DNA of 32,476 nt from Candidatus Falkowbacteria bacterium (GCA_016214755.1 JACRNX010000070.1:1-32476); one strand, 5' to 3'; shown: positions 2,142 to 32,258, counted from the first letter of the stretch. The notes: a model not told the origin generated them from the letters alone. Numbers and translations are program-made.

Positions 2142-3413
2142 ATGTGTCTGGCCACTCCGGCGAAAATCGTCGGTTTTAATCAAGATAAAATTTTAATCGA
2201 AAAGGACGGCGCGACGATGGAAGTCAGCGCTTTTTTATTGCCAAAAGCGAAAATCGGCGATTGGATTTTGTATGTTAATGATTTGGCGATAAAAAAAATT
2301 GACGCGGAAGAGGCGCGAGAGATTTTGCGGCTTGTTGAATCGCCGCGGAATAAAGTCAAGACAGAATTATTAAGTGGTAAGTTTAAGAAGATAATTGAAA
2401 AAGCGCATCAGAACGATTTGAATAAGGGTGAAATAATTTATTTATTAAACAGTGAAGGCATGGAAAAGGACGCATTGCTGGCGGAGGCGGACATCACGCG
2501 CCGCGCGTTCATCAAGGATTTTATTTGCATTCACGGCATTATCGAATTTTCCAATTATTGCGAGAATGATTGCGCGTATTGCGGATTGCGCTCGGCGAAT
2601 GGCGCGATCGAACGTTATCGGATGAGCATTGATGAAATTAAGGAAACCGCGAAGCAGGCGGCCGTCGAAAAAGGATACAAGCTGTTGGTTTTGCAGTCCG
2701 GCGAAGATAATTTTTATACCGACGATATGCTAGTTGAACTGATAAAACAGATTAAGTCCGTCTGTCGAGTGTTTATTTTCATGAGTTGCGGTGAACGCGG
2801 TTTTGAATGTTATAAAAAAATGAAAAACGCGGGCGCGTCGGGCGCGCTCTTGCGTTTTGAAACGTCAAGTCAATCATTATTCACAAAAATTCATCCGCAA
2901 GGAAAAAATTTAGAAAATCGAATTGAGCATTTGCGTTTTTTAAAAGAGTTGGGCTATTTTATCACCACTGGTTCGCTGATTGGTTTGCCTGGACAGACGA
3001 TTGAGGACTTGGCAGATGATATTTTATTGATTGCGCCGCGCGCGCACATGGTTTCAATGGGCCCGTTTATTCCTTGCGATAACACGCCGATGGAGAATTG
3101 CCCGGCTGGCGATCCGGAAATGAATTTAAAGATGATTGCCGTCTTGCGCTTGCTCATGCCGACCGCGAGAATTCCTGTTACTACCGCTCTGGAAACATTG
3201 CTCGGCGAAGACGGCCGGAAACGCGCGCTGGCGGCCGGCGCTAACGCGCTGATGATGAATTTAACGCCGAAAAAATACCGTTCGCTTTATAAAATTTACC
3301 CGGGCCGTTTTTTTGACAATGATTCGCTTTGGCAAAAGTATGGCTTGTTTAAATATGAAGAAAGTTATAAAATGCTTGAAGAGAGAATGGCGAAAGAAAT
3401 TAAGAGAAAATGA
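2142..3413 (+). CDS. hydE: [FeFe]-hydrogenase maturase HydE (radical SAM) with N-terminal HypC/HupF-like domain fusion
   Basis: Residues 1-~70 start MCLATPAKIV… and end …IGDWILYVNDLAIKKIDAEEAREIL, matching the HypC signature (MCL[AG]xP… VGDYVLVHVGFAI..ID.EEA). The rest aligns to HydE: IIEFSNYCENDCAYCGL (CX3CX2C), YRMS..EI, LQSGED, LLRFETS, ENRIEHL..LKELGY, GLPGQTIEDL, MGPFIP, YPGRF. Confidence 0.8.
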   Translation: MCLATPAKIVGFNQDKILIEKDGATMEVSAFLLPKAKIGDWILYVNDLAIKKIDAEEAREILRLVESPRNKVKTELLSGKFKKIIEKAHQNDLNKGEIIYLLNSEGMEKDALLAEADITRRAFIKDFICIHGIIEFSNYCENDCAYCGLRSANGAIERYRMSIDEIKETAKQAAVEKGYKLLVLQSGEDNFYTDDMLVELIKQIKSVCRVFIFMSCGERGFECYKKMKNAGASGALLRFETSSQSLFTKIHPQGKNLENRIEHLRFLKELGYFITTGSLIGLPGQTIEDLADDILLIAPRAHMVSMGPFIPCDNTPMENCPAGDPEMNLKMIAVLRLLMPTARIPVTTALETLLGEDGRKRALAAGANALMMNLTPKKYRSLYKIYPGRFFDNDSLWQKYGLFKYEESYKMLEERMAKEIKRK

Positions 3414-3464
3414 TTATAGATAGATGGAATAATTTTTTTATTCAAAGGCGGTTTGCTTCGCAGA

Positions 3465-3490
3465 CCTACTTTTTGTAATCAAAAAGTAGG
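3465..3490 (+). terminator. Hairpin downstream of hydE (putative terminator/attenuator)
   Basis: Perfect 10-bp stem cctacttttt/aaaaagtagg with 6-nt loop, followed by a weak T-run (caaaaagtttt). Confidence 0.4.
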
Positions 3491-3652
3491 CAAAAAGTTT
3501 TGGGGTGGCAAATTCGCTATCTCGTTGGGTTTAATCTCTTGCTGTCTGCCGCGACGCTCAGTTGCCCACCCCAAACCCCATGGTGGCGCTGAACTGTTGG
3601 TATCGCTGTTATCATCTGAAAATACAAACGACACTAACCATTCTCACAAAAT

Positions 3653-5035
3653 ATGCTGTCAGTTAACGATATTGTAACTGAAGACTTAATTCAAGATATT
3701 TTAAATAGAACAAAAAATGCCAGCGATAAAATCGCGCTGGCGATTTTAGAGAAAGCGAGAAAGAAAAAAGGATTAACGCTTGAGGAAGTCGGTTGTTTGA
3801 TTAACGCGCGAGATGACGGATTGATTGCGGAAATATTTGACGCCGCGCGCCAAGTAAAATCAGAAATTTACGGCGAACGTTTAGTCCTTTTCGCGCCGCT
3901 TTACGTTTCCAGCCATTGCGTCAACAATTGCGCGTACTGCGGTTTTCGACAGGATAATGGCGCGGGGCGGAAAAAATTAAGTTTGGAAGAAGTGGCGGAG
4001 CAAGTTAAAATTTTAGAATCAATGGGGCATAAGCGCCTGTTGCTGGAATTTGGCGAGGATCCGAAAGAGTCGCCGATTGACTATGTCGTTGAAGTTATTA
4101 AAACAATTTATGCCACCAAATGCGGTTTAGGCGAAATCCGACGAGTGAACGTTAATATCGCTGCCGATACGGCTGAAAATTATCGACAGTTAAAGGATGC
4201 GGGCATTGGCACTTATCAATTGTTTCAGGAAACTTATGACCGAAAAACTTATAAACAATTGCATCAGGGGCCCAAAGCGGATTACGAGCGGCAACTGTTC
4301 GCCATGGATAGGGCGTTTGAAGCAGGGATTGATGACGTGGGTTTGGGCGTATTATTCGGTCTTTATGATTGGCGGTTTGAAGTGCTGGCAATAATTAGCC
4401 ACGCGCGATACTTGGAAAAAAAGTTTGGCGTTGGCCCGCACACGATTTCTGTCCCGCGCTGGCAAAAAGCAGACGGCGCTCTCTGGCAATCAGCGCCGTC
4501 AGCTGTTTCTGACGATGATTTTTTGAAAATTATCGCTATCCTCCGTTTAGCTGTTCCTTACACGGGCATGATTATTTCCACCCGCGAACGGCCGGAAATT
4601 CGCGCCAAAGCGTTCAGCGTCGGTATTTCGCAGACCTCGGCCGCTTCGAGGACTTCGCCTGGCGGCTATGGCCAAAAATCAGAAACAGCGAATCAGTTTT
4701 GCGTTGCTGACGAGCGAACGCTTGACGAAGTAATCGCGAGTATCCTCGCTCAAGGTTTATTACCGAGTTTTTGCACTGCTTGTTATCGTTTAAAACGCAC
4801 GGGTGAAAATTTTATGGAGTTGGCAAAGCCGGGAGAAATCCAAAAATATTGTCGTCCAAACGCGATTTTGACTTTTCAAGAATATCTCGCGGACTATGCG
4901 TCGCCGGCAGTCAAGGAAAGCGGCGCGCGGGCGATTCAAAAACATTTGAACGCGATTGAAGATTCCGCCGTCCGCGAAGAAACGAAAAAACGGCTGGCGC
5001 GCGTCGCGGCCGGCGAACGCGATATTTATTTTTAG
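3653..5035 (+). CDS. hydG: [FeFe]-hydrogenase maturase HydG (radical SAM tyrosine lyase, ThiH-like)
   Basis: LVLFAPLYVSSHCVNNCAYCGFRQDN radical-SAM motif of the ThiH/HydG family. C-terminal FCTAC-X22-C (CX2CX22C) auxiliary-cluster motif, which is diagnostic for HydG versus ThiH. Confidence 0.85.
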   Translation: MLSVNDIVTEDLIQDILNRTKNASDKIALAILEKARKKKGLTLEEVGCLINARDDGLIAEIFDAARQVKSEIYGERLVLFAPLYVSSHCVNNCAYCGFRQDNGAGRKKLSLEEVAEQVKILESMGHKRLLLEFGEDPKESPIDYVVEVIKTIYATKCGLGEIRRVNVNIAADTAENYRQLKDAGIGTYQLFQETYDRKTYKQLHQGPKADYERQLFAMDRAFEAGIDDVGLGVLFGLYDWRFEVLAIISHARYLEKKFGVGPHTISVPRWQKADGALWQSAPSAVSDDDFLKIIAILRLAVPYTGMIISTRERPEIRAKAFSVGISQTSAASRTSPGGYGQKSETANQFCVADERTLDEVIASILAQGLLPSFCTACYRLKRTGENFMELAKPGEIQKYCRPNAILTFQEYLADYASPAVKESGARAIQKHLNAIEDSAVREETKKRLARVAAGERDIYF

Positions 5036-16838: not shown

Positions 16839-18332
16839 TTATCTTCCACCGCAACCGCATTTTCCGTTTACGCCGCAGCTTCCACCGGATGTTTCCGCGC
16901 CGGAGGCAGTAAATGAATTGCCATTGCTTTCTGAAAAATCGTCTTCAATCGCTGATTTATCGCCGCTGACAACTTCGATAATTCCGGATATCATTCCCAT
17001 CCAGCAGCTAAATTTGTATTTGCCTGGTTTTTTAGGAGTAAACTCCTTGACGCTGATTTGGCCGGGAGTCAAGGAGATTTCTCCTTCAAATAAATTCTTT
17101 GAGATAATGGCATTGGTGCAGCCGCTGGTACCTTTGTCGGTAACAATCCAACGCACCGGCACATTGGTTCTGACTTTAAAATAGTTTGGTGAATATCCAG
17201 AAGACGAGGCATTCATTTTTATAGTTTGTTTTCCGTTTACAATCAGCGGCAATCCGTTAGAATTGGCGTTGTCTGTCGTCTCGGCCGTTGCTTTTATATT
17301 AAAATTGCTGAAGCTGGGCAGTCCCAAAACATTCATTTGGAAATTGATGTTATAAAGCGCGAAAAACAAAACTACCATTCCCGCCACTTTCAAAAATTTG
17401 TCAGCCAGATGCGGCTTCTGGGAAAATTTGACGCCGGAGAGCCCAATGGTTAAAAGCATCGGCAGAGTGCCTAAAGCGAAAAAGAGCATAATTAATCCGC
17501 CTTGAATCGCGCTGCCGGATATTAAAGCGAGCCCTTGGGCAGTGATCGTAAAACCGCAAGGAAGGAAAAAAGTAAACGCGCCCAGCAAGGACGGCATATA
17601 GCGGCCCTTGAAATTAGATTCGTCGGCGATATGTCTGGTAATAAATTTTGGCATGGTGAATTGGAATCTTTTAAACGCTTTAACGCCGAGCATTTGAAGA
17701 GCAAGAAAAATCATCAACGCGGAGACAGCGATGATAAAAATAGGGCCTAATTTCAAAGAAAGATTGAATATGCCGCCAATCGCGCCGAGGATTGTCCCGA
17801 AAATTCCGTATGAAATGATTCTGGCGGCATTAAATATCAAGTGTGGTTGAATTTTTTTTGAAGCTGACGCCGCACTGGGATATAAGTCATTCCATTGTTT
17901 TGACATTGAAAGGATAATGCCGCCAACTAAAGCCGCGCAACTAGAAATGCCGGCGATGAGTCCGAGGACGAAAAACATCGGAAGAGATGATTTTTCATTG
18001 ACGTTTACTAGTCCCGACACGCCCAATTTGTTTAATCCGATAAAGCCGGCGATAATTAATAATCCAATAAATATGGCGCCAAGGAAACGCAAAGGATTAA
18101 AGATGTCTGGTGTTTCAGGGGGGTTGTCGAAAAAAATGTATCCTTCATTTCTAAAGAGTTTGTTTAATTTCTCAAGGCTGGGTTTTTCGCCGAGATATTC
18201 AATCAGCGCGCAGCCCCTTGCTGTTGAGGCCTCGACTGATTTGATGTCGCCCAGTTCGAGCAATTTTTTTTCAATGATGATTTCGCAGGAAGCGCAATGC
18301 ATTCCTTTAATATAATAGATGTGTTCTTTCAT
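16839..18332 (-). CDS. HMA-domain membrane protein with permease core (DsbD_2/TauE-like), cupredoxin-like domain and Cys-rich C-terminus
   Basis: N-terminal [13 protein letters not shown] fold. About 8 TM helices with SSCAAL and FFLPCGFT motifs. Soluble domain ending GKYKFSCWMGMISGIIEV (cupredoxin-like C..M ligands). Tail SCGVNGKCGCGG. Lies between csoR and copA. Confidence 0.6.
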   Translation of the reverse strand: MKEHIYYIKGMHCASCEIIIEKKLLELGDIKSVEASTARGCALIEYLGEKPSLEKLNKLFRNEGYIFFDNPPETPDIFNPLRFLGAIFIGLLIIAGFIGLNKLGVSGLVNVNEKSSLPMFFVLGLIAGISSCAALVGGIILSMSKQWNDLYPSAASASKKIQPHLIFNAARIISYGIFGTILGAIGGIFNLSLKLGPIFIIAVSALMIFLALQMLGVKAFKRFQFTMPKFITRHIADESNFKGRYMPSLLGAFTFFLPCGFTITAQGLALISGSAIQGGLIMLFFALGTLPMLLTIGLSGVKFSQKPHLADKFLKVAGMVVLFFALYNINFQMNVLGLPSFSNFNIKATAETTDNANSNGLPLIVNGKQTIKMNASSSGYSPNYFKVRTNVPVRWIVTDKGTSGCTNAIISKNLFEGEISLTPGQISVKEFTPKKPGKYKFSCWMGMISGIIEVVSGDKSAIEDDFSESNGNSFTASGAETSGGSCGVNGKCGCGGR

Positions 18333-25995: not shown

Positions 25996-26145
25996 TAGGG
26001 GATAGCTGGTTCGCTTGCTAAATAATTTTTCATTTAATAATTGTTTTGCGTGTAGGCCTTTTTTGAAAAAAGGAATAGAAATTTTGTTTTTCCTTATTTA
26101 TTCAGTGTATTATTCAACAGACTTATTAAGCATACTTAAAACATT

Positions 26146-27009
26146 ATGAGCAGCTACGAAGATTTTAAAAATCGGTTCAAATTACTAGCTGGCAAAAATC
26201 GTCATTTGGTAGTTAATACCTTATCAAACATTTTTACAATGAGATTAATTGGGAATAAAACGCACGGCGATTTAGCTGAAATTGGAATTGTCGAGTTTAT
26301 CAATCAATTCATGTATGATTTTAAAAGTATTCATGTTGGCAAAGACCTTTTTCGGGCGAAAGAACACGAAGAAGATATAATGATAATGAGCGAGATAAGC
26401 AAAACGAAATTTCCCGTCAGCTTAAAAGCTTATGGGGATGGTCTTTTGCAATTATCCACTGACAGCAAACAGAAGATGTTCCCATTTCTTGAAAAGCAAG
26501 GTAAAGAAATCCGGGATAATAGAAAGATAGAAGCAATTTTTAACGCTTCTGAATTTTTCGATTTTGGGGCAATAAATGTAATGCCTCTAATTTATGATGA
26601 AAAAAATCAACGCTGCAACATCATGATTTTTGACCATAAAAAGGCAAGAGACAACATAAATAAAATTATATTTATTGATAAGGGACAAAGATTTGATTTT
26701 ATGACAGGCAGAGTGGTGCCAGGAAAGGGGAGATCCCATCCGATTTATATGTTTGTAGATCCTAAAAATGAATATATATGTGAAGTAAGATATGGCGGTG
26801 CTTCGGCAAATGCTTTACAGCGCGGCCTTTGGACACACACAAAAAACGCTATTGATTATTTTGACTCTCTCACAAATGGCTGGATAGATTATTCACACAA
26901 TCATACACTTGTAAAACTTTTTGGCCTTGCTTTAAATAGTTCCGAAGAAGGTCATAAAGTTGCTAATGAAATCTTACAGAAAGACATTGATAGGCTTAAA
27001 AAATTATGA
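26146..27009 (+). CDS. Putative Type II restriction endonuclease
   Basis: 287-aa ORF whose stop overlaps the methyltransferase start (ATGA), the classic R-M gene arrangement. Distant resemblance (…YICEVRYGGASANA…) to DpnII/MboI-family catalytic region. Unconfirmed. Confidence 0.5.
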   Translation: MSSYEDFKNRFKLLAGKNRHLVVNTLSNIFTMRLIGNKTHGDLAEIGIVEFINQFMYDFKSIHVGKDLFRAKEHEEDIMIMSEISKTKFPVSLKAYGDGLLQLSTDSKQKMFPFLEKQGKEIRDNRKIEAIFNASEFFDFGAINVMPLIYDEKNQRCNIMIFDHKKARDNINKIIFIDKGQRFDFMTGRVVPGKGRSHPIYMFVDPKNEYICEVRYGGASANALQRGLWTHTKNAIDYFDSLTNGWIDYSHNHTLVKLFGLALNSSEEGHKVANEILQKDIDRLKKL

Positions 27010-28133
27010 ACGATCAACAATTAGACATTTTCGGCAGAAAAACATTGGTTGTTCCGACAACAGAAGGCATCAAATACGCAGGGTCAAAATTAAAAATACT
27101 ACCTTACATCGTTCAAATTCTAGGCGAACTTGACGGAGTAAAAAAGGTACTTGATGGGTTTAGCGGAACAACCAGAGTTTCTCAAGCTTTTGCTCAGCTT
27201 GGATATAAAACGACAGCCAACGATATTTCAGCTTGGTCTGAAGTTTTTGGTACGTGCTATCTAAAGTCAAAAAAAGAAGATAAATTTTATCAGCAAATTT
27301 TAGATCGCTTGAATGGCTTAAAAGGATATGATGGCTGGTACACAAAACACTACGGGGCGGAAATAGACGAGGGCAAAAAACCCTTTCAAACAAAGAATAC
27401 TAGAAAACTCGATGCAATAAGGGATGAGATAGAGAAATTGGATTTATCGTGGGAAGATAAATGTGTTATTTTAACAAGCTTAATCTATGCCCTTGATTCT
27501 GTTGATAGTACCCTTGGGCACTATGTTTCTTACTTGGCAAAATGGTCTCCAAGATCGCATAATGGTTTATTTTTGAAATTGCCAAAAAGATTTAAAACCA
27601 AAGGAAAACACGAAGTAATTCGTGGAGATATTTTTGATACGATACAAAAAAAAGAATTTGATTTTGTATATTTCGACCCTCCTTATGGCTCAAACAATGA
27701 AAAAATGCCTCCGAGCCGTGTCAGGTATGCTTCTTATTATCACATATGGACTACTATTATCAATCACGACAAGCCTGAATTATTTGGAAAGGTTAATCGA
27801 AGAGTGGACACAAGAGATATTGTTGCTAGTTCTGTTTTTGAGGAATTTAGAAAAAATGAAAAAGGAAGTTTTATCGCTATGGAGGCGTTAAGAAAACTAA
27901 TCCAAGAAACTAAATCTCATTATATTCTTCTTTCGTATAGTTCTGGAGGTAGGGCGACGAAGCAAGAATTAAATGACATAATACACGAATCGGGAAAATT
28001 ACTAAAAGCAGTTGAAATTAACTATAAAATAAATGTTATGGGTGGTATGCGTTGGACAAACAAATGGATTAACAGCGATAATCAACACCATGAGTATTTA
28101 TTCTTAATGGAAAAGACAAGGAATGTGTTTTGA
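27006..28133 (+). CDS. DNA N6-adenine methyltransferase, D12 (Dam-like) class
   Basis: Motif I-like KYAGSKLKILPYI and catalytic FDFVYFDPPYGS (DPPY). Confidence 0.85.
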   Translation: MNDQQLDIFGRKTLVVPTTEGIKYAGSKLKILPYIVQILGELDGVKKVLDGFSGTTRVSQAFAQLGYKTTANDISAWSEVFGTCYLKSKKEDKFYQQILDRLNGLKGYDGWYTKHYGAEIDEGKKPFQTKNTRKLDAIRDEIEKLDLSWEDKCVILTSLIYALDSVDSTLGHYVSYLAKWSPRSHNGLFLKLPKRFKTKGKHEVIRGDIFDTIQKKEFDFVYFDPPYGSNNEKMPPSRVRYASYYHIWTTIINHDKPELFGKVNRRVDTRDIVASSVFEEFRKNEKGSFIAMEALRKLIQETKSHYILLSYSSGGRATKQELNDIIHESGKLLKAVEINYKINVMGGMRWTNKWINSDNQHHEYLFLMEKTRNVF

Positions 28134-28283
28134 CTAAGGAGCAGGAGGGTCGGAGGTGAACGCCTCGAAGCCAAAACGAAAATAAAATTTGTTAATTGCT
28201 GAGAAGTATCCGACTGTTGTCGAGAAAAAAAGTATACGCCATATAATCCGAAATATCTCGTTTAAGAATTTTTCACGTTAATT

Positions 28284-28407
28284 AATTTTTTAAATGATTT
28301 TAAATTATGATGCTGATGTCGTTAATAAGCGAACCGTTATTTTTCATTGTTTGGCTATTCGCCATTGTCGTGGTTTTGACTATCCACGAATTTTCGCACG
28401 CGCTCGC
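28284..28407 (+). repeat. Direct repeat copy A (about 89% identical to 29522..29646), 5' end of M50 protease gene
   Basis: 124-nt segment including the upstream AT-rich leader and the first about 33 codons (MMLMSLISEPLFF.VWLFAIVVVLTIHEFSHALA). 44 nt are identical at the distal end. Confidence 0.85.
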
Positions 28408-28438
28408 AAATAACGGCCGAAATAGAAAAAGAAGATAA
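28307..28438 (+). pseudogene. Truncated remnant of M50/S2P metalloprotease N-terminus (44 aa)
   Basis: Encodes MMLMSLISEPLFFIVWLFAIVVVLTIHEFSHALANNGRNRKRR*. Identical or near-identical to the first TM/HExxH segment of the intact gene at 29546, then diverges. Confidence 0.6.
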
Positions 28439-28536
28439 AACTCTTGCGCGAAGTGTTGCGGATAGGACTTTACCCTTCGCCAAAAGCTATCATAATCGTG
28501 AAACGCGTCATTTTTTAGCAGGTTTTCACGTTTTAT

Positions 28537-28565
28537 TTGACAAAAAGGTGAAAAGGGTATAAAAT
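28537..28565 (+). promoter_or_regulatory. Consensus sigma70 promoter TTGACA-17-TAAAAT driving the Fic gene
   Basis: -35 TTGACA (28537-28542), 17-nt spacer, -10 TAAAAT (28560-28565), 37 nt upstream of the ATG at 28602. Confidence 0.55.
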
Positions 28566-28601
28566 AGAGTTAAAGCGCTTAATTCTTTTAATTTTATAGC
28601 T

Positions 28602-29507
28602 ATGCCAAAAACATTACATATTATTAACATAATTTCTCACCTGCGAGAACGTTATTATGCCGCGGCTGTTGGCAAACAGGCGCTTTTGAAATTGTTGAGC
28701 GAAGCGGAAGTGGCCGAACAGGTATATAACTCCAATGCCATTGAAAACAGCACGCTCACTCTTGAAGAAACAGAGAAAATACTTTTGCAAATAGATTTGG
28801 ATAGATATATTACTGAACGAGAAATTTTTGAAGCGAAAAATCTGGCGCGGGTTGTGTCATATATTGACAAAAGAGCCAAGGAGCAAGAATTAACTCTCGA
28901 AGTAATTTTATCACTTCATAAAATGTTAATTTCAAATATCCGCGACGATATTGCCGGTAGATTCAGAAAGGAAAATGAATTTGTGCGTGTCGGCAGCCAC
29001 ATCGCCCCTAACCCCAAAGAGATAGTGAATCGTCTGGAAAAAATATTGTCCGAATATAATGCTTCGAGTCATGAAAATATAATCAGAAGAATAGCAAAAT
29101 TGCATCTTGCCTTTGAATACACTCATCCATTTTGTGACGGCAATGGCCGCATTGGCCGCGTTATCAATAATTACCTGTTAATACGAGAAGGGTTTGTCCC
29201 TATAAATATAAAATTTATTGACAGAAAAAAATATTATGAAGCGTTTATAGAATTTGATGCCAAGGGCGCGACCGCTATTATGGAAGAAATAGTCGGCAAG
29301 GCGCTGACCAATAGTTATTATAAACGACTTGCTTATCTTGAGGGCGCGCAGATTCTAACCCTTGCTGAATATGCAAAAATGAATAAAATATCCCACTCTA
29401 ATTTAATTAATAAAGCCAGCCGTCAAACAATTGAGGCCTTCTTAGAAAAAGGGGTGTGGAAAATAGGCGTCGCGCAAAAAGACAGTATGAACAAATCAGA
29501 ACCCTAA
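28602..29507 (+). CDS. Fic-domain protein (class II, AMPylase-type) with C-terminal winged-helix-like region
   Basis: FIC motif HPFCDGNGRIGR (HxFx[DE]GNGRxxR). N-terminal inhibitory-helix motif SNAIEN ([ST]xxxE[GN]) upstream of the core. Confidence 0.85.
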   Translation: MPKTLHIINIISHLRERYYAAAVGKQALLKLLSEAEVAEQVYNSNAIENSTLTLEETEKILLQIDLDRYITEREIFEAKNLARVVSYIDKRAKEQELTLEVILSLHKMLISNIRDDIAGRFRKENEFVRVGSHIAPNPKEIVNRLEKILSEYNASSHENIIRRIAKLHLAFEYTHPFCDGNGRIGRVINNYLLIREGFVPINIKFIDRKKYYEAFIEFDAKGATAIMEEIVGKALTNSYYKRLAYLEGAQILTLAEYAKMNKISHSNLINKASRQTIEAFLEKGVWKIGVAQKDSMNKSEP

Positions 29508-29521
29508 TAAAAGCAATGAGT

Positions 29522-29646
29522 AATTTTTTAAAATGATTTTAAATTATGATGCTGATGTCATTAATAAGCGAACCGCTGTTTTTTGTCGTCTGGCTGTTCG
29601 CCATTGTCGTGGTTTTGACTATCCACGAATTTTCGCACGCGCTCGC
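29522..29646 (+). repeat. Direct repeat copy B (start of intact M50 protease gene)
   Basis: See copy A. Together the repeats bracket the Fic gene. Confidence 0.85.
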
Positions 29647-30223
29647 GGCCACACTCCTCGGCGATCCGACGGCGAAAGCGGCCGGCCGATTAACATTGAA
29701 TCCGCTATCCCACATCAGTTGGCTGGGATTTTTTATGCTGTTGCTGGTCGGTTTTGGTTGGGGAAATCCCGTGCCTTTTAATCCGTACAATCTCCGTTTT
29801 CCGCGGTTCGGCCCGGCCATCGTCGCTCTGGCTGGCCCGCTTTCCAATCTTATTTTGGCGGCAATTTTTATTTTTTCCTTCCGCTGGATCTTTCCTGATT
29901 TGCACCCGCTTTTTCTCATCAACGCTGGAAGCGCCAACCTGCCGGCGGAGTTGAATTTGCTCGCAATTTTTTTATCGTTGGCGACTTTTTTAAATTTGAC
30001 TTTGGCGATTTTCAACTTGATTCCCATCCCGCCGCTCGACGGTTCGAAGATATTGTTCAGCGTTTTGTCAGACGCGCGTTTTTTTTCAATTAAAGAAATA
30101 CTGGAGCGGCAGGGCTCGATGATTTTAATTGGCATTATTATTTTGGATAACTTTTTGAACACCAATATCTTTGGCCGGCTGATTTTCGCTGTCATCGGCG
30201 CTGTTTACAAACTGGTCGGATAA
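29546..30223 (+). CDS. Site-2 protease family (peptidase M50) zinc metalloprotease, short form
   Basis: HEFSHALAA (HExxH) in TM1 and NLIPIPPLDGS (LDG motif). Multi-TM, 225 aa. Confidence 0.8.
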   Translation: MMLMSLISEPLFFVVWLFAIVVVLTIHEFSHALAATLLGDPTAKAAGRLTLNPLSHISWLGFFMLLLVGFGWGNPVPFNPYNLRFPRFGPAIVALAGPLSNLILAAIFIFSFRWIFPDLHPLFLINAGSANLPAELNLLAIFLSLATFLNLTLAIFNLIPIPPLDGSKILFSVLSDARFFSIKEILERQGSMILIGIIILDNFLNTNIFGRLIFAVIGAVYKLVG

Positions 30224-30387
30224 TAGTTGGATAAAATTATTTAACACCCGCGCCATCAGAGCAAAGATTGAAATAGGACATTTCTAATTTCCGTTGTCAG
30301 GGCAGTGCATTTGATTAAAATCAACAATTCATTATAATAAGAATAAATATAATCGTAAAACTTCATTCTGAACTAATTATCAAATAT

Positions 30388-30807
30388 ATGCCTTCTCTAC
30401 CAGAGTTTCTCAAATTTTTAACAGTCAGTCCGCCGTCCGGATTAATTATCGCCAAAAAGAAGCTAATGACAAAAAAAGCGCGGATGGAGCTTTCTCAAAT
30501 GAAAAGAGTGTCTGAAATTTTTGAAGTTACAAAAAACAGCGATGTTGTGGATTTTTTTAAGGCGGTTGATAAAGTTCTAAAACAAAACGCTTGGCTTGTT
30601 TTGGATATTAAAACAGCAGACATTCCCGGTTGGCTTTACGAGCAGATGCGGACTCTTGGCGAAAACGGCCATCTTTATAACAAAGACCAAGATAAAGATA
30701 TTAGGATGGGCGACAGCCGCGTTTTAGCAATAATATCTGAAGAAAATCTTGAAGAATGTCCCTTTGAAACGTTTCAGGCGGATTTTGGAATAGTTTTCAG
30801 AACATAA
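30388..30807 (+). CDS. Hypothetical protein (139 aa)
   Basis: ORF immediately upstream of, and co-oriented with, the AAA ATPase gene. No domain recognised. Start uncertain (internal Met at MTKKARMEL…). Confidence 0.45.
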   Translation: MPSLPEFLKFLTVSPPSGLIIAKKKLMTKKARMELSQMKRVSEIFEVTKNSDVVDFFKAVDKVLKQNAWLVLDIKTADIPGWLYEQMRTLGENGHLYNKDQDKDIRMGDSRVLAIISEENLEECPFETFQADFGIVFRT

Positions 30808-30821
30808 ATATTTTCAAACAT

Positions 30822-32258
30822 ATGCCTAAATCAGAAAGGGCGTCGGGAGGAGGAATCTTTGAAAGTCGGACCGAACGCGCCAAGCGCGAGCCGATTTTTT
30901 ATTTTACCACCCGCGAAACCGATCGAAGAACCAGCGAGGCCTATGAAAAGAAATGGGTCTCGGTGCTCGGTATTGAGTTAGAGGTTTATGACGCGGAGCG
31001 CGAAGGAGGAGAAGGAACGAATTTTCGCCAAGAAGAATTTGACGATTTTCTGCATGATGACAAAGCAAAAGCAATTTTAAAACATTTTGCCATCGGCGTC
31101 AAACTAAACCACGCCCCTTTAATTGAAGGCGAGACCGACATTGGCAAAACTAAAGCCCTTGAATATTTGGCTTATCTTACTAATCACAAGTTAGTGCGCG
31201 TTTCTGTTCGCGGCACGACCGACCCATCAGAATTTTTTGGCAAGCATGTGCCCGAGTCGGCCACCGCTCAGCAGAAGATTTTGGACGCCATCAAAAGAAA
31301 GGCGGGGCTGACAAAAGAAGTCCGCGAACGAGTGGAGAAAGCGCAAAAAGCCGGCCAGTCATTTTCCCTTGAAGATTATAAGGCGCTCGCTGATTGGCAA
31401 ACAAAATCATTGTCAGGGTTGCAAAAAGAAGCGCTTTCATTTTTTCAAAAGGCGGTAAAAGAGGGCAGAGGATTGACCCGGGAAGAATGGGAACAGTTCG
31501 CGGCCATAGAGGGCATTGATCTTGAAAGTAAGATGTTTCATTGGCAAGACGGCGAAGTGGTTAAGGCCATGACGCGAAACAATGGCCATGGCTATTGGAT
31601 TTATATTGATGAAATCGGCGCGGCCGAGCCGCAAATTTTGGTCGCTTTAAATCGTATCCTTGAACAGCAAAGGCGCATTGAACTATCGGAAGACGGCGGT
31701 CGTTCTGTGGAAGCGGGCAAACATTTTCGTCTTTTTGCTTCAACTAATCCTCCTGAATACGCCGGCCGCCTGCCTTTGGCGCCTGATTTTTTGCGCCGCT
31801 GGGCTTACAAAAAAGAAAGCCCGCTCTCCGAGAAAGACATCAAAGAACGTTTTGCCCATATCGCGCGCGTGATTCCTCTTGAGCAAGAAATCAGAGAATT
31901 GTTTTGCGATGTATTAACCGTTTTTCATCTTTCTCTTCGCAGTTCAATTAAGGATATTTTGAAAAAGCAAAAACAAAAGTTTAATTATGAATTTTCCGAT
32001 TTGATTAGAGTGCGCGATTATTTTGTCGGTCTCGGCAATCAAGATCCGCTCGCCGCTCTGCGCGAAGGGATGGAATACGCTGTTTTTGCAAAAATCGGCG
32101 ATGAAGAACAGAGAAAAGCGCAGAGAGAGGCCTTTGAAACTTTATTGAAAAGTAAAACAATTCCGGAAAAAGTGAAAAAGATAATTGAAAAAAGAAGAAT
32201 ATCTGGCGCGGTCGGCCAAGCAGTGAGCAAGATGGGGCAGGATATTGCTGGTTTTTAA
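30822..32258 (+). CDS. AAA+ ATPase, AAA_5/MoxR-like, with about 90-aa insertion between Walker A and B
   Basis: Walker A GETDIGKT, VRVSVRGTTDPSEFFGKHVP (MoxR-like box), Walker B WIYIDEIGAA, sensor/Arg-finger region FASTNPPEYAGRLPLAPDFLRRW. Confidence 0.7.
   Translation: MPKSERASGGGIFESRTERAKREPIFYFTTRETDRRTSEAYEKKWVSVLGIELEVYDAEREGGEGTNFRQEEFDDFLHDDKAKAILKHFAIGVKLNHAPLIEGETDIGKTKALEYLAYLTNHKLVRVSVRGTTDPSEFFGKHVPESATAQQKILDAIKRKAGLTKEVRERVEKAQKAGQSFSLEDYKALADWQTKSLSGLQKEALSFFQKAVKEGRGLTREEWEQFAAIEGIDLESKMFHWQDGEVVKAMTRNNGHGYWIYIDEIGAAEPQILVALNRILEQQRRIELSEDGGRSVEAGKHFRLFASTNPPEYAGRLPLAPDFLRRWAYKKESPLSEKDIKERFAHIARVIPLEQEIRELFCDVLTVFHLSLRSSIKDILKKQKQKFNYEFSDLIRVRDYFVGLGNQDPLAALREGMEYAVFAKIGDEEQRKAQREAFETLLKSKTIPEKVKKIIEKRRISGAVGQAVSKMGQDIAGF

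Follow-up and report, generated by a model that had tools for sequence, protein, structure and literature searches.

Hydrogenases of the [NiFe] and [FeFe] types are unrelated enzymes with unrelated maturation machineries. In the HypABCDEF pathway of the [NiFe] enzymes, HypD is the scaffold, HypE and HypF make cyanide from carbamoyl phosphate, and HypA and HypB insert nickel. The chaperone HypC of this pathway has an essential residue, Cys2, that is thought to coordinate the Fe(CN)2CO unit, and its His51 has been proposed as an extra iron ligand on the HypC–HypD scaffold (PMC12134894). In the HydE–HydF–HydG system of the [FeFe] enzymes, HydG, a radical S-adenosylmethionine (SAM) enzyme, converts tyrosine to CO and CN- and assembles [Fe(Cys)(CO)2(CN)]- on a dangler iron. 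HydE accepts the synthon for adenosylation and reduction to Fe(I), after which the product dimerises and passes to HydF (PMC12501116). Here we describe a locus where parts of the two pathways are joined. The stretch of DNA analysed (the window) comprises 32,476 nucleotides from Candidatus Falkowbacteria bacterium (GCA_016214755.1, JACRNX010000070.1:1-32476), and encodes a HypC-type domain fused to a HydE-type core, followed by HydG. At related loci, the same genes stand in or near [NiFe] hydrogenase operons, which suggests a hybrid route to the [NiFe] active site.

A search of the full-text literature, with most subscription journals outside its scope, returned neither a HypC–HydE fusion nor a role for HydE or HydG in [NiFe] maturation. 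A 2025 review of [NiFe] maturation includes no HydG or other radical-SAM enzyme, and names the anaerobic source of CO as the most pressing open question (PMC12134894). In Greening et al. 2024, archaeal HydE, HydF and HydG are treated only as [FeFe] maturases. The closest described loci are those of group-3b [NiFe] hydrogenases in the candidate phyla radiation (CPR), where Jaffe et al. 2020 noted a family homologous to hypC, ‘fam002’, beside the hydrogenase genes (PMC7304191). As in that study, the hydrogenases at our related loci are either four-subunit, hyd1-like, or consist of a large subunit and a truncated small subunit, hyd2-like; unlike here, no radical-SAM enzyme, HydE or HydG is mentioned in its main text. 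The fusion is real and widely conserved, and appears to be an undescribed HydE/HypC variant.

Architecture of the HypC–HydE fusion and the adjacent HydG

The fusion protein (Table 1) starts with MCLATPAKIV, and its residues 38–58 read IGDWILYVNDLAIKKIDAEEA. PF01455 (HupF_HypC) matches residues 1–64 with 58.9 bits against a gathering cutoff of 28.5, in agreement with the original prediction of a HypC signature that includes the essential N-terminal cysteine (MCLATP). The TIGR00074 model for HypC (cutoff 48) gives 47.4 bits with the full-length protein and 51.8 bits with the N-terminal 73 residues alone, and the N-terminus matches T. kodakarensis HypC (PDB code 2Z1C) with E=3.4e-8. That the same open reading frame (ORF) continues into a full HydE radical-SAM enzyme was likewise predicted, and the unbroken 423-residue frame confirms it: TIGR03956 (HydE) matches residues 89–389 with 274.5 bits, only slightly above the NCBIfam cutoff of 254.6, with PylB as the runner-up family for the core at 165 bits. 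The HydE core scores 254 bits against the T. maritima HydE structures (PDB codes 3IIZ and 7O1O). Further Pfam matches are to Radical_SAM (PF04055, residues 134–295) and BATS (PF06968, residues 309–394). The junction, where a stop or frameshift had been considered, is free of both, and the same junction is found in independent assemblies.

An AlphaFold2 model of the fusion, built with 114 homologues, has a predicted local distance difference test score (pLDDT) of 89.1 and a predicted template-modelling (TM) score (pTM) of 0.89, and places a small barrel with a helix ahead of the HydE barrel. In the HypC part, strands are placed at residues 5–13, 16–21, 24–29, 41–45 and 48–53 and a helix at 55–65 (pLDDT 75–87), and this part is predicted to fold as an oligonucleotide/oligosaccharide-binding (OB) β-barrel plus a C-terminal helix. 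The pLDDT is about 66 for residues 61–70 of the linker, and rises to 84 for residues 71–80. The top fold match of the model in the PDB is T. maritima HydE, with a TM score of 0.84–0.90. In the C-terminal tail, which is conserved in the alignments, helices are predicted at 396–400 and 406–421.

Relative to T. maritima HydE, the core has approximately 40–45% identity, the CX3CX2C motif, the triose-phosphate isomerase barrel fold and an adjacent HydG in common. It differs in the added N-terminal HypC domain and a C-terminal tail of its own, in belonging to a separate clade, and in an incomplete cysteine triad for the auxiliary cluster; at the level of the loci, the fused form occurs with [NiFe] genes and never with HydF or HydA. 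As for the HypC, HybG and HupF chaperones, the N-terminal domain has an MCxxxP motif with Cys2, a GDW/Y-hL core and the predicted five-strand barrel plus C-terminal helix, and is linked to genes for [NiFe] large subunits. Unlike these chaperones, it is bound covalently to a radical-SAM enzyme, has His51 replaced, and has no HypD detected nearby.

Cys2 and Pro6 are invariant in all 72 fused HypC domains compared, as well as in the nine standalone HypC proteins. The column of E. coli His51 is occupied by Ile, Ala, Thr, Val or Leu in 70 of the 72 fused domains, and by His in every one of the nine neighbouring standalone HypCs. Because His51 is replaced in the fused copy and kept in the adjoining standalone proteins, the fused copy looks like a sub-functionalised paralogue rather than a generic HypC. 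A separate standalone HypC of about 70 residues, with His51 kept, adjoins the fusion at the loci numbered here as L005, L009, L038, L039, L042, L052, L078, L085 and L092–L094; such modules therefore carry two types of HypC.

The HydG encoded downstream, with the CX2CX22C C-terminus that the original prediction had noted beside hydE, scores 567 bits with TIGR03955 (NCBIfam cutoff 312) and 568 bits against the structure of Thermoanaerobacter italicus HydG (PDB code 4WCX). Its radical-SAM cysteines are Cys89, Cys93 and Cys96, and the C-terminal motif is Cys374-X2-Cys377-X22-Cys400. A histidine near residue 265 of 4WCX, close to the site of the dangler iron, is aligned and conserved in the window protein. 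Judged by these sequence features, the HydG is fully canonical, with everything required for production of CO and CN. Pfam scans of the remaining large ORFs of the window gave no HydF, no HydA and no [NiFe] subunit, so that the predicted absence of HydF and HydA from the window stands.

Table 1. Coordinates in the window of the fusion gene, its domains, the spacer and hydG.
Feature	Position	Strand	Basis and remarks
HypC–HydE fusion gene	2142..3413	+	423 residues, single unbroken frame; Pfam, TIGR03956, AlphaFold2
HypC/HupF-like domain, residues 1–64	2142..2333	+	PF01455; Cys2 codon 2145–2147; Val at E. coli His51 position
Linker and N-terminal helix region, residues 65–88	2334..2405	+	Conserved in alignments; no stop or frameshift
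HydE-type radical-SAM core, residues 89–389	2406..3308	+	TIGR03956; CX3CX2C (Cys140/144/147) at 2559–2582
C-terminal tail typical of the fused subfamily	3309..3413	+	Consensus ...WEKYGLFKYEESYKMLEERM...; beyond the TIGR03956 match
hydE–hydG spacer	3414..3652		239 bp; perfect 11-bp hairpin at 3465–3490
HydG, radical-SAM tyrosine lyase / Fe(CO)2(CN) synthon synthase, 460 residues	3653..5035	+	TIGR03955; CX3CX2C 3917–3940, CX2CX22C 4772–4852

Distribution of the fused subfamily

PF01455 and PF04055 occur together in 116 of the 120 best homologue clusters (90% identity), with members drawn from NCBI, JGI, ENA and Logan assemblies, and with 55–79% identity to the window protein. A second, divergent fused family starts with MCYAIPG, is 43% identical to the window protein and is fused in all 120 of its top clusters; according to the sources, its hosts are Aenigmarchaeota, Woesearchaeota, Altiarchaeota, Nanoarchaeota, Margulisiibacteriota, Saganbacteria, Nitrospirota and Patescibacteria. 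Overall, the hosts of the fusion include Patescibacteria, DPANN archaea, Margulisbacteria and some Gram-negative bacteria. In a search of 1.84 billion representatives at 50% identity, approximately 14 fused representatives were among the top 150 matches. Two of them are natural HypC–HydE–HydG triple fusions (P0121, 881 residues; P0127, 906 residues); such triple fusions exist in both fused families, which points to joint action of the three modules as a unit.

In an alignment of 25 fusions, Met1, Cys2, Leu3, Pro6, Asp40, Trp41 and the radical-SAM cysteine triad are invariant, and the linker is conserved. In a neighbour-joining tree of HydE cores with midpoint rooting, where the fused and unfused tags were corrected by means of protein lengths and precomputed Pfam matches, the fused HydEs of both families make up one clade of 31 tips, with 111 unfused HydEs outside it. 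The fused proteins thus seem to be a distinct, monophyletic HydE subfamily with a HypC-type domain permanently at the N-terminus. The original prediction had allowed for the architecture being already common and annotated; common it is, but database names for the fused proteins do not go beyond HydE, radical SAM protein or biotin synthase, and the window protein itself is listed as HydE.

A sequencing or assembly error that joined hypC to hydE can be rejected, given that hundreds of independent assemblies, drawn from four data sources, show the architecture. The unbroken frame, the conserved linker and the confident single-chain model also speak against an artefact. One broken example alone was met, L078, and there the reverse has happened: a frameshift splits a fused gene. 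Fusion genes of the Patescibacteria type were also found on L008, L010, L011 and L016, which are binned as metagenome-assembled genomes of Gammaproteobacteria, Methylomirabilis or Nanoarchaeota; either the contigs have been mis-binned or the module has been transferred laterally.

Gene neighbourhoods of related loci

Related loci were collected from species-representative genomes (11), from metagenomes (74) and by exact-protein look-up (14), with flanks of up to 10 kb. Neighbouring ORFs from 90 of the loci were clustered without prior labels, and their identities were confirmed with Pfam. The commonest neighbour families are the small and the large subunit of [NiFe] hydrogenase, at 21 and 20 loci, respectively, followed, each at 10 loci, by a 4Fe-4S beta and an FAD/NAD gamma subunit, and then by standalone HypC at 7 loci. 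In all, 31 of 94 loci (about 1.1 Mb) are [NiFe]-linked. These fall in 15 of the 44 clusters formed at 70% identity, and the link can therefore not be ascribed to one lineage counted repeatedly. Where HydG is adjacent and the flank is at least 5 kb, [NiFe] subunits are present at 16 of 26 loci.

The maturase genes often lie within group-3b [NiFe] operons (subgroup label after PMC7304191). Three loci have the order beta, gamma, HypC–HydE, HydG, small subunit, large subunit (L010, L037 and L051), and in two, small and large subunit precede HypC–HydE and HydG (L038 and L039). In another arrangement, HypC, HypC–HydE and HydG face the genes for the large, small, gamma and beta subunits (L009 and L092–L094, with a seven-gene module in L092–L094), or those for the large and small subunit only (L042 and L043). 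L092–L094 are Gram-negative contigs that carry RND/OEP or AsmA genes. Four-subunit operons are found at L009, L010, L038, L051 and L092–L094, and the subunits were assigned with Pfam at L008, L009 and L010.

The motifs that provide the Ni-Fe ligands, RxCGxC and DPCxxC, are present in every linked large subunit. Many of them, for instance at L005, L009, L010, L092 and L094, end exactly at the histidine of DPCxxCxxH, and therefore lack a C-terminal peptide that could be cleaved off. L008 nevertheless has a weak HycI-like gene, and L021 a homologue from the same cluster that lacks a Pfam match.

The divergent fused family is [NiFe]-linked as well, with a large subunit and a truncated small subunit in Nanoarchaeota. 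A second case from this family is a Margulisiibacteriota locus (L097, 536–8911), where about 1 kb separates a fusion gene that has no HydG beside it from the operon of a membrane-bound group-4 [NiFe] hydrogenase; the large subunit of this enzyme retains both CxxC pairs. An Altiarchaeota locus (L096, 7086–14610; GCA_043800255.1) has the pair among genes for ThiF, ThiS, ThiI, a class-V aminotransferase, a DsbA-like protein and a rhodanese, and no hydrogenase occurs within 10 kb of the pair. There is also a clade of fusions that lack HydG, 41–49% identical to the window protein (L058, L060, L062, L064–L067, L071–L074 and L077), with genes for a DJ-1/PfpI protein, a response regulator and a large protein of unknown function as conserved neighbours.

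HydF was searched for with tblastn, using Firmicute HydF sequences from control loci as queries, and HydA by scanning the six-frame translation of each locus with regular expressions for the three H-cluster motifs. Neither HydF nor a HydA H-cluster motif was found at the 94 loci, where a very divergent ‘minimal’ HydA could escape the exact motifs; the Firmicute control loci L013 and L015 have HydE, HydG and HydF together. With E. coli queries in tblastn, HypA, HypB, HypD, HypE, HypF and HycI were not found in approximately 1.09 Mb of flanks, while the HypC query matched the HypC part of the fusion; HypD in particular was not found by tblastn within 10 kb at about 100 loci. Directly downstream of the large-subunit gene, short HypA-like ORFs of 84–97 residues occur in L026 (18095–18370), L051 (10607–10900), L068 (15082–15336) and L070 (14365–14619). 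HypA-like scores of 27 and 22.9 bits lie below the Pfam cutoff of 28.9, with only the N-terminal nickel-binding half matched, and the ORFs apparently lack the zinc domain.

Proposed role and alternative explanations

The most sensible role for the fused HypC domain is that of an iron carrier or delivery module. We see roughly even chances that HydG and HydE make an Fe-CO/CN unit that is handed by the HypC domain to a [NiFe] large subunit, a target proposed because docking onto apo-[NiFe] large subunits is the known carrier function of HypC proteins. The original prediction had considered a scaffold or iron-delivery role within [FeFe] H-cluster assembly; its carrier or delivery part is retained, but the [FeFe] setting is not supported, since the neighbours are [NiFe] genes and HydA and HydF are absent from the related loci. 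In the proposed route, HydG would cleave tyrosine and build the cysteine-bound Fe(CO)2(CN) synthon, as in its established chemistry, and the HydE core of the fusion would take over this synthon and process it by radical-SAM chemistry, a step established for HydE and proposed here for the fusion. Instead of dimerisation and transfer to HydF, the thiolate of the fused Cys2 would capture a mononuclear Fe-CO/CN unit, which the fused HypC domain would hand to the large subunit, either directly or via a standalone HypC of the His51 type. The main clients of such a tyrosine-dependent radical-SAM route to Fe(CO)(CN)x would be group-3b enzymes, with group-4 enzymes in some cases; its hosts would be Patescibacteria, DPANN archaea, Margulisbacteria and some Gram-negative lineages. 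What the sequences show is the identity of the domains, the conserved fusion and its gene linkage; all transfer steps, and the change from (CO)2(CN) to (CO)(CN)2, are what we infer.

Several points weigh against delivery to a [NiFe] enzyme. With respect to chemistry, the [NiFe] site needs Fe(CO)(CN)2 and HydG yields Fe(CO)2(CN), so a ligand swap must be assumed; the known product of HydE is a di-iron precursor, and the need for HydE in assembly of a mononuclear site is not obvious. The fused HypC domain has lost His51, which E. coli HypC needs. Approximately 40% of the informative loci with fusion and HydG are without a hydrogenase within 10 kb, and at many loci the fusion has no HydG nearby. 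The window itself has no hydrogenase gene according to Pfam scans, over 2 kb upstream and 27 kb downstream. Because the 32-kb contig is without one, the link to [NiFe] enzymes rests on homology to other loci, and the Falkowbacteria pair would need a target hydrogenase from another part of the genome. The absence of HypD, HypE, HypF and HydA holds at locus level, for flanks of 10 kb, and the E. coli tblastn queries could miss very divergent homologues. The clade of fused HydEs comes from a crude neighbour-joining tree with midpoint rooting. Finally, gene neighbourhood is only a correlation, and the evidence is all genomic.

An [FeFe] hydrogenase encoded elsewhere might instead be the target, with the HypC domain replacing HydF as a scaffold or carrier for the 2Fe precursor. 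The locus has the two radical-SAM enzymes of the HydE–HydF–HydG system in the same hydE–hydG order, both enzymes exceed the curated equivalog cutoffs for HydE and HydG, and the window HydG is about equally close to the [FeFe]-system HydG 4WCX and to its own orthologues. Green-algal HydE is fused to HydF, its downstream scaffold, a precedent for the joining of HydE to a carrier; the logic of the HypC–HydE fusion resembles that of this algal HydEF. Some DPANN archaea, moreover, encode minimal [FeFe] hydrogenases but hardly any of the known maturases, or none (PMC11216029). Unlike in the [FeFe] system, however, neither the HydF GTPase scaffold nor HydA is found at the related loci, the fusion partner is a chaperone of the [NiFe] pathway, and [NiFe] subunits are the strongest neighbours, with the maturase genes often inside their operons. 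The only known role of HypC-family proteins is as partner of a [NiFe] large subunit. HydF also assembles the dithiomethylamine bridge (PMC12501116), and a 64-residue OB-fold domain is not obviously capable of this. Though the identity of the two enzymes makes it plausible, maturation of an [FeFe] enzyme encoded elsewhere is unlikely, with no locus in its favour. Still less probable is that the pair makes an organometallic or sulfur cofactor for a target other than hydrogenase, with the linkage due to co-regulation, or that the HydG-less fusions function separately. This would suit the many loci where a lone fusion stands beside unrelated genes (RecO/RuvX, DJ-1/PfpI), the Altiarchaeota pair embedded among sulfur-transfer genes, and the HydE score just over the family cutoff. 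It does not account for the insertion between hydrogenase structural genes in several independent lineages, or for a HydG that is fully canonical, and we know of no role for a HypC domain outside [NiFe] large-subunit maturation.

The remaining alternative accepts a [NiFe] target and regards the pair as an auxiliary supplier of CO, or of extra CN-, to a canonical Hyp pathway encoded elsewhere, the HypC domain merely tethering it to the HypC/HypD scaffold. Common to the loci and the HypABCDEF pathway are a HypC-type carrier, weak HypA-like and HycI-like genes, and large subunits with the standard four-cysteine site. Standalone HypC genes of the His51 type accompany the module at many loci, the HypA-like genes that follow some large-subunit genes are weak and truncated, the larger Gram-negative genomes of L092–L094 may well carry hyp genes elsewhere, and an anaerobic source of CO is an acknowledged gap in the canonical pathway (PMC12134894). 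On the other hand, hyp genes commonly cluster with hydrogenase genes, yet HypD, HypE, HypF and HypB were not detected in the flanks, where tyrosine-using radical-SAM enzymes for CO and CN are found instead. HydG yields CO and CN jointly on a cysteine-bound iron, which makes use of the CO only an unparsimonious solution. The genomes of Patescibacteria and DPANN archaea are also small, and generally without carbamoyl-phosphate-dependent biosynthesis. An accessory function of this kind is likewise unlikely in our judgement, if slightly less so than an [FeFe] target. For the delivery route favoured above, the bolder version, where HypC–HydE and HydG suffice to make the iron-carbonyl-cyanide half of the [NiFe] site without HypD, HypE or HypF, is put forward tentatively, with an appreciable chance of being right that nevertheless falls clearly short of even.

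Other features of the window

The spacer between hydE and hydG is unusually long, compared with gaps of approximately 0–25 bp in the relatives. Its predicted RNA fold is mildly better than that of shuffled sequence (z = -2.25), and the 11-bp hairpin occurs once in the whole window. An Rfam scan of the window at the gathering threshold returned four tRNAs only, and no family for the spacer.

Elsewhere in the window, a 555-residue protein (10514–12181, minus strand) has matches to the major vault protein (MVP) shoulder (99.6 bits), Vault_3, Vault_2 and SPFH/Band 7, as well as a Vault repeat below the Pfam cutoff; these are domains of the eukaryote-type major vault protein, here on a Patescibacteria contig. 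A copper P-type ATPase adjoins an HMA-DsbD_2-cupredoxin fusion protein (14636–18332, minus strand). At 128–1268, an HTH-SocA/Panacea antitoxin-like gene overlaps an ORF of 126 residues, and the two may be a toxin–antitoxin pair. The region 26000–32258 has a low-GC stretch (33–36% at 26–29 kb) and carries a D12 adenine methyltransferase with an ORF of unknown function upstream of it; genes for a Fic/DOC protein and a McrB-like AAA_5 ATPase come next, and the region looks like a defence or mobile island.

Significance

HypC–HydE together with HydG in [NiFe] operons is a concrete, testable candidate for a crossover between the two hydrogenase maturation systems. If the bolder version of the proposed route is correct, radical-SAM maturases of the [FeFe] type would have been recruited, through fusion to HypC, to build the [NiFe] site from tyrosine. 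This would provide the first defined anaerobic source of the CO ligand of [NiFe] enzymes, and a second source of their cyanides that is independent of carbamoyl phosphate. For the annotation of metagenomes, the presence of HydE and HydG should not count as evidence for [FeFe] hydrogenase metabolism. The route could also explain how the widespread group-3b hydrogenases are matured in CPR and DPANN organisms with tiny genomes.

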